NCBI GenBank assembly: GCA_944391755.1
Contig: CALXUT010000012.1
Coordinates: 9,727-73,726, forward strand
DNA: 64,000 nt
DNA from: an uncultured Clostridia bacterium
GTDB taxonomy: Bacteria > Bacillota > Clostridia > TANB77 > CAG-508
Direction of reading: 5' to 3'
Shown: piece after piece, positions 511-13,900 of the stretch
Position numbering within the stretch: position 1 is the stretch's first letter
How the letters are laid out: each line of letters opens with the position of its first letter
Translations under genes and position numbers: made by a program
Notes under the pieces: model-generated
What the model was told of the DNA's origin: nothing
Databases searched by the model: none
The model's input: the letters and a program-made list of their open reading frames with translations, nothing else

Positions 511-2130
511 ATGCCAAGTTATTTAGGATTATATGTTGAAGATAACTTAATTAAATATGCTAAAATCTCAAAAGAAAAAGAAAACATAAAAATCGACTCT
601 TTTGGTGTTAAATTTTATTCAAATATCTCTCAGGCAATTAAACAAATAGTAGAAGAAACATATAGTTATAAAACTCCAATAAGCGTAAACTTAACAGAAG
701 AAACATATCAATATTTTGACATGTTTGCTTTATTGAATAAAAAAGACTTGGAGAAAGCAATAAAATTAGAATTTGAATCATATTGCTCAGAAAAAGGTTA
801 TAATCCAAATTCACTAGAAACAAGATATGCAATAGTGAATAACACTGAAGACAAAGAAAAATTAAAAGTTATCAATATCAGTGACAATAAAATGGAATTG
901 AATAAGGTACAACAAAGATTTGAAGGCTACAGACTTGCAATGATTGCTCCAGTTTCGATGTCTATACCTAATATAGTAAATGTACAACCTAAAGAAAATG
1001 CGCTTATTGTAAATATAGAAGGAAAAACGACAATAACCACAATAATTAATGGGAATGTGCAAGAGGTAACAACTTTAGATGAGGGAAGTAAAGAAATATT
1101 AGAAAAGATAAATTTAAAGGAAAATTCTTATTCAAAAGCATATGAAATATGTCAAAATACTACAATTTATACAGCAGATGTACAAGATTTTGTGGAAGAA
1201 CAAAGCAGATACTTAGAAGATATAATGCCAACATTATATAATATAGTAGGAAAAGTACAAAAAATAATTAATGAAAGTACAACTGCAATAAATAAAGTGT
1301 ATATAACAGGAACATTATCTTGTGTAAATAATATAGATTTATATTTCCAAGAATACTTAGGAAAAGTAAAGTGTGAAATATTAAAACCATATTTTGTACA
1401 AAATATGACAAAAGAAGTAAACATAAAAGAATACATAGAAGTAAATTCAGCGATTTCTTTAGCATTACTTGGTTTGGGTGACGGAATAAAAGGAATTAAC
1501 TTTAAAAAGTCAGCATTTGGTGAAGGCTTCTTAAATATAACAATAGGAAAAGATAATAATGGAAAGAAGAATAAAAAATCTTCTAGTGTTAATTTTAATT
1601 TTAATGATTTTGGAGATAAATTGTCTAAAAGTGAAATGGGACTTGTTAGAAGTTTTTTTTCTCTAATCATATTTATTGTTATATATAGTGCTTTTTCAAT
1701 ATTATTGATTGATCAAATAGAAAAGAAAGAACAAGAAGTAGATAGTGTAACTACTAAAATAGCTGCACAAATAGATAGAGTAAAAAAAGATACAACGACC
1801 TTAGATACAAAGACGACGCAATATACTACATTAATTACAGATTTACAAGAAGTTAATGAAAAAATTAGTGATATGAATGCAAGTAAAAATTTAATACCTA
1901 ATTTGTTGAACCAGATAATGCAGGTTATTGATGAAACGGTGCAAATTACATCAATAGAAAACACAACTGGAAAACATATAGTAATAGTAGCACAAGCACC
2001 AAAATATCAAGGACTAGGATATTTTAAAACAAAATTAAAAACCAATAACATTCTTCAAGATGTTGTTTCAGGAAGTGGTATGAAACAAAATGGAGTAATA
2101 ACTGTAACGATAGAAGGTGATTTACCATGA
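511..2130 (+). CDS. pilM: Type IV pilus assembly protein, a PilM (actin-like ATPase fold) fused to a PilN-like TM and coiled-coil C-terminal part
   Basis: 539 aa. The N-terminal ~330 aa look PilM-like (YLGLYVEDNLIKYAKI...). A single TM follows (LVRSFFSLIIFIVIYSAFSILLI), then a coiled-coil/PilN-like tail. SD GAGGGGGA precedes it, and it is the first gene of the pilus cluster. Confidence 0.75.
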   Translation: MPSYLGLYVEDNLIKYAKISKEKENIKIDSFGVKFYSNISQAIKQIVEETYSYKTPISVNLTEETYQYFDMFALLNKKDLEKAIKLEFESYCSEKGYNPNSLETRYAIVNNTEDKEKLKVINISDNKMELNKVQQRFEGYRLAMIAPVSMSIPNIVNVQPKENALIVNIEGKTTITTIINGNVQEVTTLDEGSKEILEKINLKENSYSKAYEICQNTTIYTADVQDFVEEQSRYLEDIMPTLYNIVGKVQKIINESTTAINKVYITGTLSCVNNIDLYFQEYLGKVKCEILKPYFVQNMTKEVNIKEYIEVNSAISLALLGLGDGIKGINFKKSAFGEGFLNITIGKDNNGKKNKKSSSVNFNFNDFGDKLSKSEMGLVRSFFSLIIFIVIYSAFSILLIDQIEKKEQEVDSVTTKIAAQIDRVKKDTTTLDTKTTQYTTLITDLQEVNEKISDMNASKNLIPNLLNQIMQVIDETVQITSIENTTGKHIVIVAQAPKYQGLGYFKTKLKTNNILQDVVSGSGMKQNGVITVTIEGDLP

Positions 2131-2879
2131 GAAAATTATTAATAGGTTTAATAACAGTTTTATTATTTGCACTAGCAGTATATATTGTTATTTGCGGACT
2201 TTCATTTGCAGGAATAGAAATAAGTAGTGTTTCCGCAATACAAGAAGAAAATGCTAGACTAGAAAATAAGATAGAAGAAGCAAATGATTTGAAAAATATA
2301 GATTATCCACAAAATGTAACAGTATTGGAATCATCATATAAAAAATTAATGACAGAAAAAGAAAATTACGAACAAATACTTGCATTAGGTGTTGATGAAA
2401 ATGGACAGCCATTGAATAAAATACAAGAATATGAAATTGAAAAAATTTGGATTACTATGGGAAATTATGCTACAAAGCAAGGTGTTGACTTAAAACTAGA
2501 CGTTACTTCAAATAATTCAATAAGTGGCACTTATGATTTAACCTTTACTGCAACAGGAGGATATATTCAAATAATAGATTTCTTGTATGATGTTGAAAGA
2601 GATAGTACATTAGTATTTAAATTAGAAAATTTCAAAATGGTACCAGGTACAAGTACAGAAGAATTAGTTGCTACATTTGTATGTAAAGATGTAAAATTAA
2701 ATATAACAGACACATCATCTTCTACAAATGATACTACAACAACAGGAGAAAATACAAATGCAAATACAAATTCAAATAATAGCAACACAACGAATAGTAC
2801 AAACACCAATAGTACAACAACAAATACGAACAGTACAGGAAATACATCAACAACAAGCAATACAACGAATAATACATAG
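2127..2879 (+). CDS. PilO-like pilus assembly membrane protein with a Ser/Thr/Asn-rich C-terminal tail
   Basis: 250 aa with an N-terminal TM and a coiled coil. An ATGA overlap with pilM indicates translational coupling. The C-terminal ~55 aa are almost only T/S/N (TNDTTTTGENTNANTNSNNSNTTNSTNTNS...). Confidence 0.6.
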   Translation: MRKLLIGLITVLLFALAVYIVICGLSFAGIEISSVSAIQEENARLENKIEEANDLKNIDYPQNVTVLESSYKKLMTEKENYEQILALGVDENGQPLNKIQEYEIEKIWITMGNYATKQGVDLKLDVTSNNSISGTYDLTFTATGGYIQIIDFLYDVERDSTLVFKLENFKMVPGTSTEELVATFVCKDVKLNITDTSSSTNDTTTTGENTNANTNSNNSNTTNSTNTNSTTTNTNSTGNTSTTSNTTNNT

Positions 2880-2897
2880 TGTTAGAAAGGAGAAAAT

Positions 2898-3320
2898 ATG
2901 ACAAAAGTAATTATTAGAGAAACAATCATAGCACTTTTAGTATGTTTAGCAGTATTAATCATTTTGAGTGTAGTTTTATATAATTATATTCCATCTAACA
3001 AAGTAGTTCCAGAAACTGTAGAATATACGCCTAGTAGAGAAATACAAACACAACTAAATGCATCTGTAGAGGATAATTCAGATGAAATTATCATGACATA
3101 TGAAATAACAGCAACTGATTTGGATAATTTTGAAAGAACAAATGAATATAATCCAGGAAAAGTAAATCCTTTTGCAGCATATTCAGAGACACCTGATGAA
3201 GGTGATGGCAGTGGTTCTACAGGTGGTAGTGGTGGAAGTACGACTACTGGACAAGGTAATCAAACTACGGGAGGAAGCAACTCAGGAGGATCATTATGGG
3301 AGAATGGAAGTAGTAAATAA
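2898..3320 (+). CDS. Small membrane-anchored pilus-locus protein with a Gly/Ser-rich tail (function unknown)
   Basis: 140 aa with an SD (AAAGGAGAAAA), an N-terminal TM, and a C-terminal GDGSGSTGGSGGSTTTGQGNQTTGGSNSGGS stretch. Confidence 0.55.
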   Translation: MTKVIIRETIIALLVCLAVLIILSVVLYNYIPSNKVVPETVEYTPSREIQTQLNASVEDNSDEIIMTYEITATDLDNFERTNEYNPGKVNPFAAYSETPDEGDGSGSTGGSGGSTTTGQGNQTTGGSNSGGSLWENGSSK

Positions 3321-3495
3321 GGTTATATTTAATTTTTAAATATATACAAAAAATTCAAAAGAAGAAGGAGGGGTGTATGACACTTTTCAATAGACATATG
3401 ATAAATGATATATTTATCTAAATTAATTTTGTTATTAAAATTTTAAATAAAAATATCTGTTAAAAAACAGAAGAAAGAAAAGGAGAGATTTTATT

Positions 3496-4071
3496 ATGAG
3501 AAACCAAAAAGGTATCACATTAGTAGCTTTAGTAGTTACAATCGTAGTTTTATTAATTTTAGCTGGAACATCAATTGCAATGCTATCAGGAGATAATGGA
3601 ATTATCACAAATGCACAAAAATCAACTGCTGCAAATACAGAAGGACAAGTTACAGAAAACATAAAAAATGCTTATAACACAATAAAAACAGAAATTGTTA
3701 CAAAAGCATCAACAGACAACACGTATAATGCATTAGATGATGAAGACAGTTATGCTGTAGCTCAAGAAATTGCAAATACAGTAGCAAGAGAAATAACAGG
3801 AAAAAGTTCAGCTTCTTATACAGAAAATGTTTGCACGGATGGTGGATACACAATTACATACACAGCACCTACTTCAACAACTACACCTGCAACAATTTCA
3901 ATAGTATATACTGATGCATCATTTGCTGAAGGCAAAACAGTAGCTGGAGTTGAATGTAATACAATACAAGCATTATTTACAATAGGTTCAAGTGATGTAT
4001 CACTTTCATGGGATACTGACAAAACAGATCCAGGTGATGTAAAAGGACCATTCTTTATACCAAGCAGATAA
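3496..4071 (+). CDS. Major pilin candidate with a non-canonical class III leader (no Glu5)
   Basis: 191 aa. The N-terminus MRNQKG|ITLVALVVTIVVLLILAGTSIAMLSGDNGII has a basic leader, then Gly, then a ~20-aa hydrophobic helix. Position +5 is Ala, not Glu. It has a strong SD (AAAAGGAGAG), is followed by a strong hairpin, and lies inside the T4P locus. Confidence 0.75.
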   Translation: MRNQKGITLVALVVTIVVLLILAGTSIAMLSGDNGIITNAQKSTAANTEGQVTENIKNAYNTIKTEIVTKASTDNTYNALDDEDSYAVAQEIANTVAREITGKSSASYTENVCTDGGYTITYTAPTSTTTPATISIVYTDASFAEGKTVAGVECNTIQALFTIGSSDVSLSWDTDKTDPGDVKGPFFIPSR

Positions 4072-12882: not shown

Positions 12883-12911
12883 TTGACATTTATTCAAAAA
12901 TGAATTATACT
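12883..12911 (+). promoter_or_regulatory. Putative promoter of the tRNA pair
   Basis: TTGACA (12883-12888), a 17-nt spacer, then TATACT (12906-12911), about 30 nt upstream of the first tRNA. Confidence 0.6.
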
Positions 12912-12939: not shown

Positions 12940-13016
12940 GCTCCCGTAGCTCAGTTGGTCAGAGCAACCGGCTCATAACCGGTGGGTCCTAGGTTCAAGT
13001 CCTAGCGGGAGCACCA
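12940..13016 (+). tRNA. tRNA with a CAU anticodon, either elongator Met or, more likely, lysidine-type Ile2
   Basis: A 77-nt cloverleaf with acceptor gctcccg/cgggagc, anticodon arm accgg-CTCATAA-ccggt, T arm ctagg-ttcaagt-cctag, and an encoded CCA. The anticodon stem lacks the three G-C pairs of initiator tRNA. The GGCTCATAACC context resembles Bacillus tRNA-Ile2. Confidence 0.85.
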
Positions 13017-13047: not shown

Positions 13048-13368
13048 GGACAGGTGGCCGAGTGGCTAAAGGCGGCAGACTGTATGCTTTGCTTTAAGCA
13101 GAAGTTGCAGCCTATACAAGAAATTGTATAGTGAAAACTAGGCTAATTCGGGGAAGTCTTAACAGATATAACATGATATGCTGATGATAATCCCGAGCTA
13201 GAAAGAAATTTCGAGTGTAGAGACTTTATACCTGGCATCTGAAAATGATGAAGAGAAAGTCCAGACTACAAACATTTTTATATTAATATAAAATGGTAGT
13301 GAAAACTATAGTGGTAAGAAATCTGTTCTCATATGAGTACGATGGTTCGAATCCATCCCTGTCCACCA
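13048..13368 (+). tRNA. tRNA-Tyr(GUA) interrupted by a group I intron (exons 13048-13083 and 13319-13368)
   Basis: Joining the exons gives GGACAGGUGGCCGAGUGGCUAAAGGCGGCAGACUGU|AAAUCUGUUCUCAUAUGAGUACGAUGGUUCGAAUCCAUCCCUGUCCACCA. This is a class II tRNA with a long variable arm. Its anticodon arm is almost identical to E. coli tRNA-Tyr (GCAGACUGUAAAUCUGC). Confidence 0.9.
13084..13318 (+). ncRNA. Group I intron (small, ORF-less, IC3-like) inserted between anticodon positions U35 and A36
   Basis: The 5' exon ends in U and the intron ends in G. An internal GCAG (~13099-13102) can pair with exon CUGU to give the U.G wobble of P1. Other candidate elements are AAUUCGGGG...CCCGA (P4), GAAA-GAAA-UUUC (P6 with a GAAA loop), and GUGUAGAGACU...AGUCCAGACUAC (J6/7-P7-like). 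These resemble the Azoarcus tRNA-Ile intron core strings CAAAUUCGGCGAAAC and GGUGUAGAGACUAGACGG. Confidence 0.8.
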
Positions 13369-13369
13369 T

Positions 13370-13403
13370 AAAGCCAAAAGAAAAAATCTTTTGGCTTTTA
13401 TTT
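13370..13403 (+). terminator. Rho-independent terminator after tRNA-Tyr
   Basis: aagccaaaaga-aaaaa-tcttttggctt followed by ttatttt. Confidence 0.7.
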
Positions 13404-13422
13404 TATTTAAAAGGAGATAATA

Positions 13423-13803
13423 ATGATAGACTATACGAATAAGCAAAAGGGAAATTGTGGACTTGGAATTGCAATTGGATATTTTTGCACAAATGGATAT
13501 ATTGTATCAGTACCTCTAAATGATACTCAAGATTATGATTTAATAGTAGATAAATATCAAAAAATCAGTAAAATCCAAGTAAAATATACATCATGTAAAA
13601 CAAAATATGATGTTTATCAAGTTGCATTAAAAAGTTGCGGAGGAACAAAAGGAGCAACATATAAAACTGTAAAAGACACTGAAATTGATTATTTGTTTAT
13701 AGCAACTGATAACCTAGATACGTATTTAATTCCTAAAAATGAGATTTCTAATAAAAGCACATTAAATTTATGCAATAAATATTTGAAATATAAAATTAAT
13801 TGA
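13423..13803 (+). CDS. Free-standing PD-(D/E)XK endonuclease of the I-Ssp6803I / 'group I intron endonuclease' type (PDDEXK_5-like)
   Basis: 126 aa. GNCGLGIAIGYFCTNGYIVSVPLNDTQDYDLIVDKYQKISKIQVKYTS fits the family pattern G..GE......G..V..P.gD...yDLi.d.....rvQVK (D...D-x12-QVK catalytic core). It has its own SD (AAAGGAGATAATAATG) and lies 55 nt downstream of the intron-containing tRNA. Confidence 0.65.
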   Translation: MIDYTNKQKGNCGLGIAIGYFCTNGYIVSVPLNDTQDYDLIVDKYQKISKIQVKYTSCKTKYDVYQVALKSCGGTKGATYKTVKDTEIDYLFIATDNLDTYLIPKNEISNKSTLNLCNKYLKYKIN

Positions 13804-13871: not shown

Positions 13872-13900
13872 TTGACAAAACTCCCAATATATGCTATAAT
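13872..13900 (+). promoter_or_regulatory. Consensus sigma-A promoter feeding a ~275-nt leader of rnj
   Basis: TTGACA (13872-13877), a 17-nt spacer, then TATAAT (13895-13900). The next start codon with an SD is at 14181. Confidence 0.7.

Follow-up and report, generated by a model that had tools for sequence, protein, structure and literature searches.

A free-standing PD-(D/E)XK nuclease gene beside an intron-bearing tRNA-Tyr in gut Clostridia: a candidate collaborative homing pair

Introduction

The PD-(D/E)XK homing endonucleases were founded on I-Ssp6803I, a tetramer, and it is to this enzyme that profile and structure searches tie the gene considered here. The gene is a free-standing open reading frame (ORF) in 64,000 nucleotides (nt) of an uncultured Clostridia bacterium (assembly GCA_944391755.1, contig CALXUT010000012.1, positions 9,727–73,726 of the forward strand), a stretch that we call the window and whose own numbering is used throughout. 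Immediately upstream of the ORF lies a tRNA-Tyr gene that is interrupted by a group I intron.

The closest described arrangements come from phages. Two phage systems of collaborative homing have been described (PMC3984707): the free-standing F-CphI acts with an ORF-less psbA intron in cyanophages, and mobE acts with the defunct I-TevIII nrdB intron in T-even phages (PMC3984707, PMC2988022, PMC2790892). This mode of homing has been proposed to explain how ORF-less introns join with free-standing nucleases to become mobile introns. Many new types of tRNA group I intron have been catalogued, with no mention of linked nucleases (bioRxiv 10.1101/2020.01.27.920355). Within an incomplete coverage of the literature, we found no report that pairs a chromosomal tRNA intron with a free-standing PD-(D/E)XK nuclease, in agreement with the initial annotation of the window, which knew of none for a bacterial chromosomal tRNA intron and this nuclease family; nor, within the same coverage, did we find an association between PDDEXK_5 proteins and tRNA arrays described. 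Here, we compare the locus with its bacterial, metagenomic and viral relatives, and find it somewhat more probable than its rivals taken together that the nuclease and the ORF-less intron of the adjacent tRNA-Tyr form a collaborative (trans) homing pair, whose cut site and protection by the intron we infer from the relatives.

Organization of the locus and its group I intron

The tRNA-Met/tRNA-Tyr operon and the nuclease gene comprise the following features.

12883–12911, + strand: sigma-70-like promoter (TTGACA-17-TATACT) of the tRNA-Met/tRNA-Tyr operon, from a promoter-match scan
12940–13016, + strand: tRNA-Met(CAT), first gene of the operon (Rfam tRNA, 73.4 bits)
13048–13083, + strand: tRNA-Tyr(GTA) exon 1, final base U-1 (...GCAGACTGT), from ARAGORN with introns allowed, coordinates and sequence checked
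13084–13318, + strand: ORF-less group I intron, 235 nt (Rfam Intron_gpI)
13319–13368, + strand: tRNA-Tyr exon 2 (AAATCTG...CCACCA), from ARAGORN with introns allowed
13370–13408, + strand: terminator-like hairpin of 12 bp (13370–13398) with a T-rich tail, in the spacer between tRNA and ORF
13411–13416, + strand: Shine-Dalgarno sequence AAGGAG, 6 nt 5' of the ATG
13423–13803, + strand: free-standing PDDEXK_5 (I-Ssp6803I-family) nuclease gene, 126 amino acids (aa), ATG start, TGA stop

The split tRNA-Tyr(GTA) was missed by ARAGORN under default settings and recovered at 13048–13368, with its 235-nt insert, once introns were allowed. The insert matches Rfam Intron_gpI (RF00028) at 39.5 bits, short of the gathering score of 50, with an E-value of 8.7e-9 when 391 nt were searched, and it is absent from the output of an Rfam search over a 3-kb stretch at E<=0.1. 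It interrupts the anticodon between positions 35 and 36, separating CUGU from AAA, with U-1 at 13083 and the omega-G at 13318. A conserved TTGCAGC (13105–13111) holds a putative internal guide, GCAG, which by eye pairs with the exon CUGU, and the intron is conserved across 62 aligned loci.

Upstream of the nuclease ORF, no promoter-like site other than that at 12883–12911 has more than 10 of 12 matches, and a scan of the interval from tRNA-Tyr to the ORF found no comparable site. Most related loci retain the adjoining tRNA-Met, and most have an equivalent hairpin between tRNA and ORF. The Shine-Dalgarno/anti-Shine-Dalgarno duplex of the window is of average strength for the family (-9.3 kcal/mol; family median -9.1). 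The initial annotation had placed the nuclease outside the tRNA, behind a hairpin and with a Shine-Dalgarno sequence of its own, and had seen no ORF in the intron; the layout stands, as does the lack of an ORF within 13084–13318, and the distance from the tRNA-Tyr 3' end to the nuclease ATG is corrected from 55 to 54 nt.

Family assignment of the nuclease

Searches with the 126-aa protein returned Pfam PF11645 (PDDEXK_5) at E=8.9e-17 and 61.8 bits over residues 6–109, against a curated cut-off of 26.1 bits, and the uncharacterized phage family PHROG 5018 at E=2.7e-21. A profile built from 24 homologs found a single match among the sequences of the PDB, I-Ssp6803I itself (2OST; E=5e-4, residues 6–116). 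The AlphaFold model is of modest quality (predicted local distance difference test score, pLDDT, 64.9), and its top Foldseek match in the PDB is again 2OST_A (E=2.9e-4, probability 1.00, TM 0.57/0.49). An NCBIfam search added nothing, and the PADLOC defense library gave a single weak match, to its generic 'HEase' homing endonuclease model (E=0.0024).

Across 12 diverse members, phage proteins included, the invariant residues are G10, A17, G25, V28, Y38, D39, L40, Q52, V53, K54, Y65 and D89. The stretch Y38-D39-L40...Q52-V53-K54 aligns with YDL...QVK of 2OST, and from this family motif, of the form D...(E/Q)-x-K, D39, Q52 and K54 are the predicted catalytic residues. At the 48 columns that are at least 95% conserved, the window protein departs only twice, and conservatively (A19G, I30V). 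By these profile and structural matches, the protein belongs to the I-Ssp6803I family and its predicted active site is intact. The PDDEXK_5/I-Ssp6803I assignment of the initial annotation is thus upheld by Pfam, by the 24-homolog profile and by Foldseek; its motif, GxG...GYxVSVPlnD..DYDLIVD..(12)..IQVKY, is present, and the part conserved family-wide is YDL...QVK. The ratio of nonsynonymous to synonymous substitution (dN/dS) has a family-wide median of 0.22, indicating purifying selection, and is higher for the close pairs L188/L073 (0.70) and L164/L038 (0.49), where L followed by a number denotes a related locus; D37N in L188 does not affect a family-invariant position.

Linkage of intron and nuclease among bacterial genomes

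A protein collection of 5.8 billion sequences contained 1723 relatives, of which the top 120 share 68–98% identity and a length of ~126 aa. A scan of 185,579 species-representative genomes yielded 132 relatives, and the best 80 of these, all from metagenome-assembled genomes of gut Clostridia/Bacillota (human, ruminant, rabbit, chicken), made up our sample of loci. An intron-bearing tRNA-Tyr lies upstream of the ORF in 64 of the 80, with introns of 201–247 nt and a tRNA–ORF gap of usually 54–130 nt. Four loci (L013, L053, L057, L073) have an intronless tRNA-Tyr at the same distance, ten have other DNA directly upstream of the ORF, and two are cut by contig ends. The intron is therefore present in 64 of the 68 species-level genomes that carry the ORF beside an intact tRNA-Tyr, a count that is not adjusted for shared ancestry. 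The initial annotation had asked for just this co-occurrence and had named a widespread ORF beside uninterrupted tRNA-Tyr genes, uncorrelated with the intron, as the outcome that would speak against it; such loci make up only 4 of the 68.

Flanking protein genes vary between loci, and the tRNA-Tyr/ORF pair persists. Only L001 and L008 keep the MiaB-like and RNase J synteny of the window, which a few others share in part, and no partner gene around the nuclease ORF is conserved among the compared loci.

States of the locus in close relatives

Close relatives were sampled through homologs of the 101-aa gene (orf101) upstream of tRNA-Met, an anchor that is blind to both intron and ORF, and were compared along the synteny ROK/MiaB-like/orf101/tRNA-Met/tRNA-Tyr. 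All four contigs of the window species that reach the locus carry intron and ORF, and show no polymorphism for either. L297 (91% identical) has the intron and an ORF that lacks codons ~12–87, catalytic core included; L299 and L300 (82%) have the intron and no ORF; L303/L304, L305 and L307 (72–80%) have neither. The co-absence and the intronless tRNA-Tyr alleles that the initial annotation had proposed looking for are thus found, in the same synteny, in L303, L305 and L307. The mature tRNA-Tyr is the same or nearly so throughout this sample, and is identical at 86 of 86 positions in the window, L297, L299, L303 and L305, so that the spliced product of the window equals the uninterrupted tRNA-Tyr of L303 and L305. 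The intron is far from universal in the clade, and the 64 of 68 is therefore informative. At finer scale, L188 and L073 differ by a precise 219-nt intron indel between GACTGT and AAATCTG, and are near-identical over tRNA-Met, both exons, the spacer and 900 nt 3' of the ORF (3 differences).

A further, intron-anchored sample was drawn from metagenomes with a 20-nt core pattern, which listed 120 contigs and among them 100 informative tRNA-Tyr introns. These 100 comprise 47 introns with an intact ORF, 6 whose ORF is cut by a contig end, 9 with ORF remnants and 38 without an ORF. The intron without the ORF is therefore common (38 of the 100 listed) and the ORF without the intron rare (4 of 68), an excess that is expected if the break falls at the intron site and the ORF lies 0.1–0.5 kb away. 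The ORF has been deleted or truncated repeatedly in close relatives, with no visible replacement (L297, L162, L092, L100, L109 and C-terminal remnants). Empty sites, intron with ORF, intron with deleted ORF and intron alone all occur, and the alignments suggest that every state of a homing cycle is represented among close relatives.

Two loci with a different gene order bear on the partnership. In L184 (metagenome), a divergent PDDEXK_5 ORF is followed by tRNA-Ala and by a tRNA-Tyr with a related 181-nt intron; L233, a viral contig, carries tRNA-Met, tRNA-Ile, a tRNA-Tyr with a related 182-nt intron, a PDDEXK_5 ORF and tRNA-Gln. The pairing of such an ORF with an intron-bearing tRNA-Tyr recurs in these two independent arrangements.

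L055 and L061 share a ~900-nt block of ~100% identity from the tRNA through the ORF, within flanks of 92–94%. We considered such conservation of the module above its flanks as proof of horizontal transfer and rejected it as such: it is suggestive only, since constraint acts on tRNA and intron and mosaic recombination is frequent in these genomes.

As a side observation, group I introns with the same 20-nt core, GAGTGTAGAGACTTTATACC, occur on metagenome contigs in tRNA-Leu (L085, L107, L146) and tRNA-Thr (L142), and no PDDEXK_5 ORF was detected at these four loci. The core pattern had no match in viral contigs, where related introns were reached only via the protein.

Phage and viral relatives

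In all six GenBank phages inspected, the homolog is free-standing within a tRNA array: directly before tRNA-Tyr in three, before tRNA-Ser(GCU) in two, and between tRNA-Gly and tRNA-Lys in one. Of 173 IMG/VR relatives, 80 were examined, and a tRNA lies within 1.5 kb in 80 of 80 and within 250 nt in 75; the neighbors are dominated by tRNA-Tyr, tRNA-Ser and a suppressor-like tRNA(CUA). All 86 phage homologs examined (6 GenBank, 80 IMG/VR) are thus in tRNA arrays. In a neighbor-joining tree without support values, and hence indicative, ORF clades track the identity of the adjacent tRNA, and the nearest viral relatives of the Clostridial clade are those associated with tRNA-Tyr.

Some viral members interrupt a tRNA gene themselves. 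In L257 and L283, the ORF is encoded by a group I intron (61.1 and 46 bits, respectively) within a tRNA-Ser(UGA) gene, and the L257 intron, scored against Intron_gpI, also matches the profile of the window intron (E=5e-17). L272 has the same build by ARAGORN exon call, with an intron that lacks an Rfam match. In L251, a tRNA-Asn(GUU) has a 614-nt intron that encodes a PDDEXK_5 protein (Pfam 1e-30); its core matches the window-intron profile, and it sits at the same loop position, between CUGU and UAA. The anticodon loop of a canonical tRNA-Tyr in L208 is split by 507 nt that hold the ORF closest to the Clostridial clade, and that of a tRNA-Ser(UGA) in L267 (1432–1905) is split likewise; both inserts consist almost only of the nuclease ORF, and no ribozyme was recognizable in either. 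PF11645 is matched by L184, L233, L208, L251, L257 and L267 alike. Homing endonuclease genes usually lie at or beside their own cleavage site, and the members found in anticodon loops therefore point to the tRNA anticodon loop as the target of the family.

Several features of these viral loci are recorded for their own sake. The insert in the split tRNA-Tyr of L208 (1341–1932) has a 125-nt leader with a mimic of the anticodon stem-loop, and the stop codon of its ORF is the TAA of the loop. The intron-encoded nucleases of L257, L272 and L283 (ORFs from 1501) have in-frame TAG at conserved Gln positions, which suggests an origin in stop-codon-recoded phages. In L238, L260 and L262, the ORF has suppressor-like tRNA(CUA) genes on either side. 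Viral contig L207 (49–131 and 772–1036), which has a PDDEXK_5 ORF in its tRNA array, also yields two RNA matches: a skipping-rope RNA whose 63.7 bits exceed the gathering score, and one resembling transfer-messenger RNA whose 41.9 bits fall below it.

Insertions at the tRNA-Tyr 3' end and other flanking features

At the ten loci with other DNA upstream of the ORF, we considered that the ORF might be a mobile cassette that always lies behind CCA-ending small RNAs and is directed to tRNA-like 3' ends. This was rejected on sister alignments, which instead show islands inserted at the 3' end of tRNA-Tyr. The CCA-ending elements upstream of these ORFs matched neither Rfam nor the tRNA-Tyr and intron profiles, and folded better than shuffled sequence in only two of four cases; homology to the sister locus starts exactly at the tRNA 3' end, CACCA or CCTGCCCACCA. 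In L041, a 3' fragment of tRNA-Tyr is followed by an island of ~1.9 kb (2058–3945) whose right end abuts the ORF, and in L005 an intact intron-bearing tRNA is followed by a 2046-nt insert (1943–3988) and then the ORF. In L298 (3519–3545), the tRNA 3' end is directly repeated over 12 nt, CCCTGTCCACCA followed at once by CCCTGTCCACCA (window equivalent 13357–13368), beside an island that encodes a Phage_int_SAM_3 integrase and a Phage_CRI protein, and integrase genes also lie 3' of tRNA-Tyr in L131 and L158. Judging from these alignments, tRNA-Tyr has an integration hot spot at its 3' end, and the ORF is left on the far side. Islands thus separate tRNA and ORF, and the ten odd loci are therefore not evidence against linkage.

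The ~2-kb islands of L041 and L005 have inverted-repeat hairpin ends (TTGATAC..ATCAATC), with a right end, GGCACCA, that mimics the tRNA 3' end. They carry no integrase, and their cargo varies (a 321-aa unknown protein in L041, a 330-aa HExxH protein in L005); the left end also occurs 3' of tRNA-Tyr in L104, L120, L177, L194, L196 and L307. A G+C-rich structured element of ~130 nt is found ~60–200 nt past the tRNA-Tyr 3' end in L095, L115 and L148, and in L115 its last part duplicates the T-arm and the acceptor 3' end of tRNA-Tyr (GAATCCATCTCTGCCCACCA).

Downstream, homology is lost exactly at the ORF 3' end and regained 1.3–2.9 kb further on in the pairs L056/L059, L087/L144, L026/L027 and L059/L110; a variable region therefore begins right after the nuclease gene. 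In the window, a perfect extended -10 promoter (TTGACA-17-TGcTATAAT) lies 3' of the ORF at 13872–13900, ahead of RNase J, whose gene (14181) is preceded by a ~280-nt leader that is kept in L297 and may be a regulatory 5' untranslated region. Between terminator and Shine-Dalgarno sequence, 58 of 131 related loci (e.g., L073:3955–3970) share a palindromic motif, (A/C)GAACAAAAGTTC(T), that the window lacks; it lies 15–40 nt 5' of the ORF start, where only 0.016 occurrences per 60 nt are expected, and may serve to control the nuclease, as an operator or as an RNA hairpin.

A model for the locus and its alternatives

If nuclease and intron are a collaborative homing pair, the following course may be envisaged. 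Read-through past the hairpin at 13370–13398, starting at the tRNA-Met/tRNA-Tyr promoter, would give low-level transcription of the nuclease gene, a route suggested by the lack of a comparable promoter between tRNA-Tyr and the ORF, and the gene would be translated from its own Shine-Dalgarno sequence. The enzyme, probably a multimer like I-Ssp6803I, would recognize the pseudo-palindromic DNA of the tRNA-Tyr anticodon stem-loop (CAGA-CTGTAAA-TCTG) and cleave it in intronless alleles. Repair from an intron-bearing donor would always copy the intron, and would copy the nuclease gene as well if the tract extended ~0.1–0.5 kb downstream. Carriers would be immune, their recognition site being split by the intron, and splicing of the intron out of the tRNA would keep the cost to the host small. 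After fixation, the nuclease gene would be expected to decay, and the intron to persist or be lost.

Several observations weigh against this model. Four independent lineages (L013, L053, L057, L073) keep the ORF beside an intronless tRNA-Tyr, and these ORFs retain an intact catalytic motif and show 0–2 deviations at the 48 conserved columns, which rules out our expectation that they would be degenerate; the exons of L073 are, moreover, identical to those of its intron-bearing sister L188. Shine-Dalgarno strength places L013, L053 and L073 in the lowest 8–15% of the family. L057 combines a strong Shine-Dalgarno sequence with a perfect ORF, and its GGTAGACTGTAAATCTATT is the sole change in the 15-bp core CAGACTGTAAATCTG among ~177 tRNA-Tyr alleles, a symmetric C..G to T..A replacement of the outer anticodon-stem pair. 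Weak translation and a variant site are thus hints at why the four are tolerated, and as accounts they are post hoc, with n=4. Phage homologs mostly lie beside uninterrupted tRNA-Tyr or tRNA-Ser genes, and the intron is therefore not the sole way to coexist with the enzyme. The ORF has the look of a long-term resident: its composition is like that of its neighbors (GC 25%, 13.5% at third codon positions), its divergence is about that of neighboring housekeeping genes, and it is fixed in the window species, where a purely selfish gene would be expected to decay after fixation. Some intron-only loci arose by deletion of the ORF (L092, L100, L109, L162) or by island insertion rather than through short conversion tracts, and shared ancestry may inflate the intron–ORF correlation.

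The strongest rival, which we hold to be possible and clearly less probable than collaborative homing, is intronless homing of the kind known for T4 Seg and Mob enzymes: the nuclease would cut in or near tRNA-Tyr away from the intron site, for example at the tRNA 3' end or in the region 3' of the ORF, and spread itself by co-conversion, with the intron an independent hitch-hiker. The four exceptional lineages and the phage homologs beside uninterrupted tRNAs fit this directly, and SegB of T4, free-standing between tRNA genes and cutting a tRNA region, is a precedent (PMC2988022, PMC13096335). The abrupt loss of homology at the ORF 3' end in several strain pairs and the L055/L061 block from tRNA to ORF can be read in the same way. 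Against it, 64 of 68 ORF loci have the intron even though alleles without intron and ORF are common in close relatives, and L184 and L233 again pair a PDDEXK_5 ORF with an intron-bearing tRNA-Tyr. The family members that interrupt tRNAs, moreover, sit in the anticodon loop, where I-Ssp6803I also acts, and the only anticodon-arm variant, L057, is an intronless locus with the ORF.

A little less probable, in our estimate, is a domesticated homing endonuclease that is inherited vertically for a host function, such as cutting the intronless tRNA-Tyr of incoming phage arrays or promoting recombination and amplification at the tRNA locus as for SegB. Purifying selection at the median dN/dS given above, host-like composition, ORF identity that tracks neighboring housekeeping genes, and presence in more than 130 species-level genomes with fixation in the window species would all suit such a role; SegB drives amplification of a phage tRNA-Tyr segment (PMC13096335), and gut phages often have tRNA-Tyr beside homologous ORFs. 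The repeated deletion and truncation of the ORF in close relatives without visible replacement argue against it, as do the absence of conserved partner genes and a PADLOC result limited to one weak homing endonuclease match.

An unlikely but consequential possibility is that nuclease and intron work as a restriction-like system of self and non-self, in which the intron would shield the single tRNA-Tyr of the host and the enzyme would cut intronless tRNA-Tyr on incoming DNA; tRNA-Tyr is very often included in the tRNA arrays of gut phages. If true, this would explain purifying selection on a 'selfish' chromosomal nuclease across more than 100 species, and a self-splicing intron would do the work of a protective methylase. 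Least credible of all is an inactive relic, with an ORF open by chance or lately freed from selection beside an old, vertically inherited intron: the decay of the ORF in many relatives and the raised dN/dS of the close pairs L188/L073 and L164/L038 speak for it, and the full-length window ORF with all family-invariant residues, its average-strength Shine-Dalgarno sequence and the purifying selection on the family as a whole speak against it.

Collaborative homing is open to direct test at this locus, since relatives supply a natural series of states: the empty site, the intron with an active-looking nuclease gene, with a dead one or on its own, a nuclease encoded within a related intron, and a nuclease gene that itself splits a tRNA. 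The compactness of these nucleases (~125 aa), with targets in tRNA genes that are probably long and predictable, also gives them practical interest.

Comparison with known systems

The window nuclease resembles I-Ssp6803I of Synechocystis PCC 6803 (2OST) in belonging to PF11645, in the YDL...QVK motif and in similarly small size, and each is associated with a bacterial tRNA gene whose anticodon loop is interrupted by a group I intron. Their identity in structural alignment is only ~17–18%, however, and the setting differs: I-Ssp6803I is encoded inside the intron of tRNA-fMet in a cyanobacterium, whereas the window gene stands outside the tRNA, downstream of an ORF-less intron, at tRNA-Tyr in gut Clostridia. 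I-Ssp6803I, hitherto a lone cyanobacterial example, thus belongs to a large guild of tRNA-gene-associated nucleases, whose members in phage tRNA arrays are biased to tRNA-Tyr and tRNA-Ser.

T4 SegB offers a second likeness, as a free-standing endonuclease gene among tRNA genes, the same setting as that of the 86 phage homologs, and several T4 endonuclease genes have a hairpin upstream of the ORF, as at the window ORF. SegB differs in being a GIY-YIG enzyme that cuts an intergenic tRNA region and homes without an intron (PMC2988022, PMC13096335); it also shows no preference for a tRNA isotype (PMC13096335), whereas the PDDEXK_5 ORFs show a strong bias toward tRNA-Tyr and tRNA-Ser.

A functional parallel would be with F-CphI and mobE, where, as in the window, a free-standing endonuclease gene lies beside a gene whose group I intron has no ORF or a defective one. 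The predicted logic is shared as well, in that the intronless allele would be cut at the insertion site and the intron would protect its carrier and be co-converted. The phage examples concern protein-coding genes, and mobE encodes an enzyme of the HNH family; the window case, by contrast, involves a tRNA gene on a bacterial chromosome and a PD-(D/E)XK enzyme, and is maintained in more than 100 species. If the reading of the locus as a collaborative homing pair is correct, this mode of homing also operates on a bacterial chromosome and in a tRNA gene, and includes an enzyme of the rare PD-(D/E)XK class.

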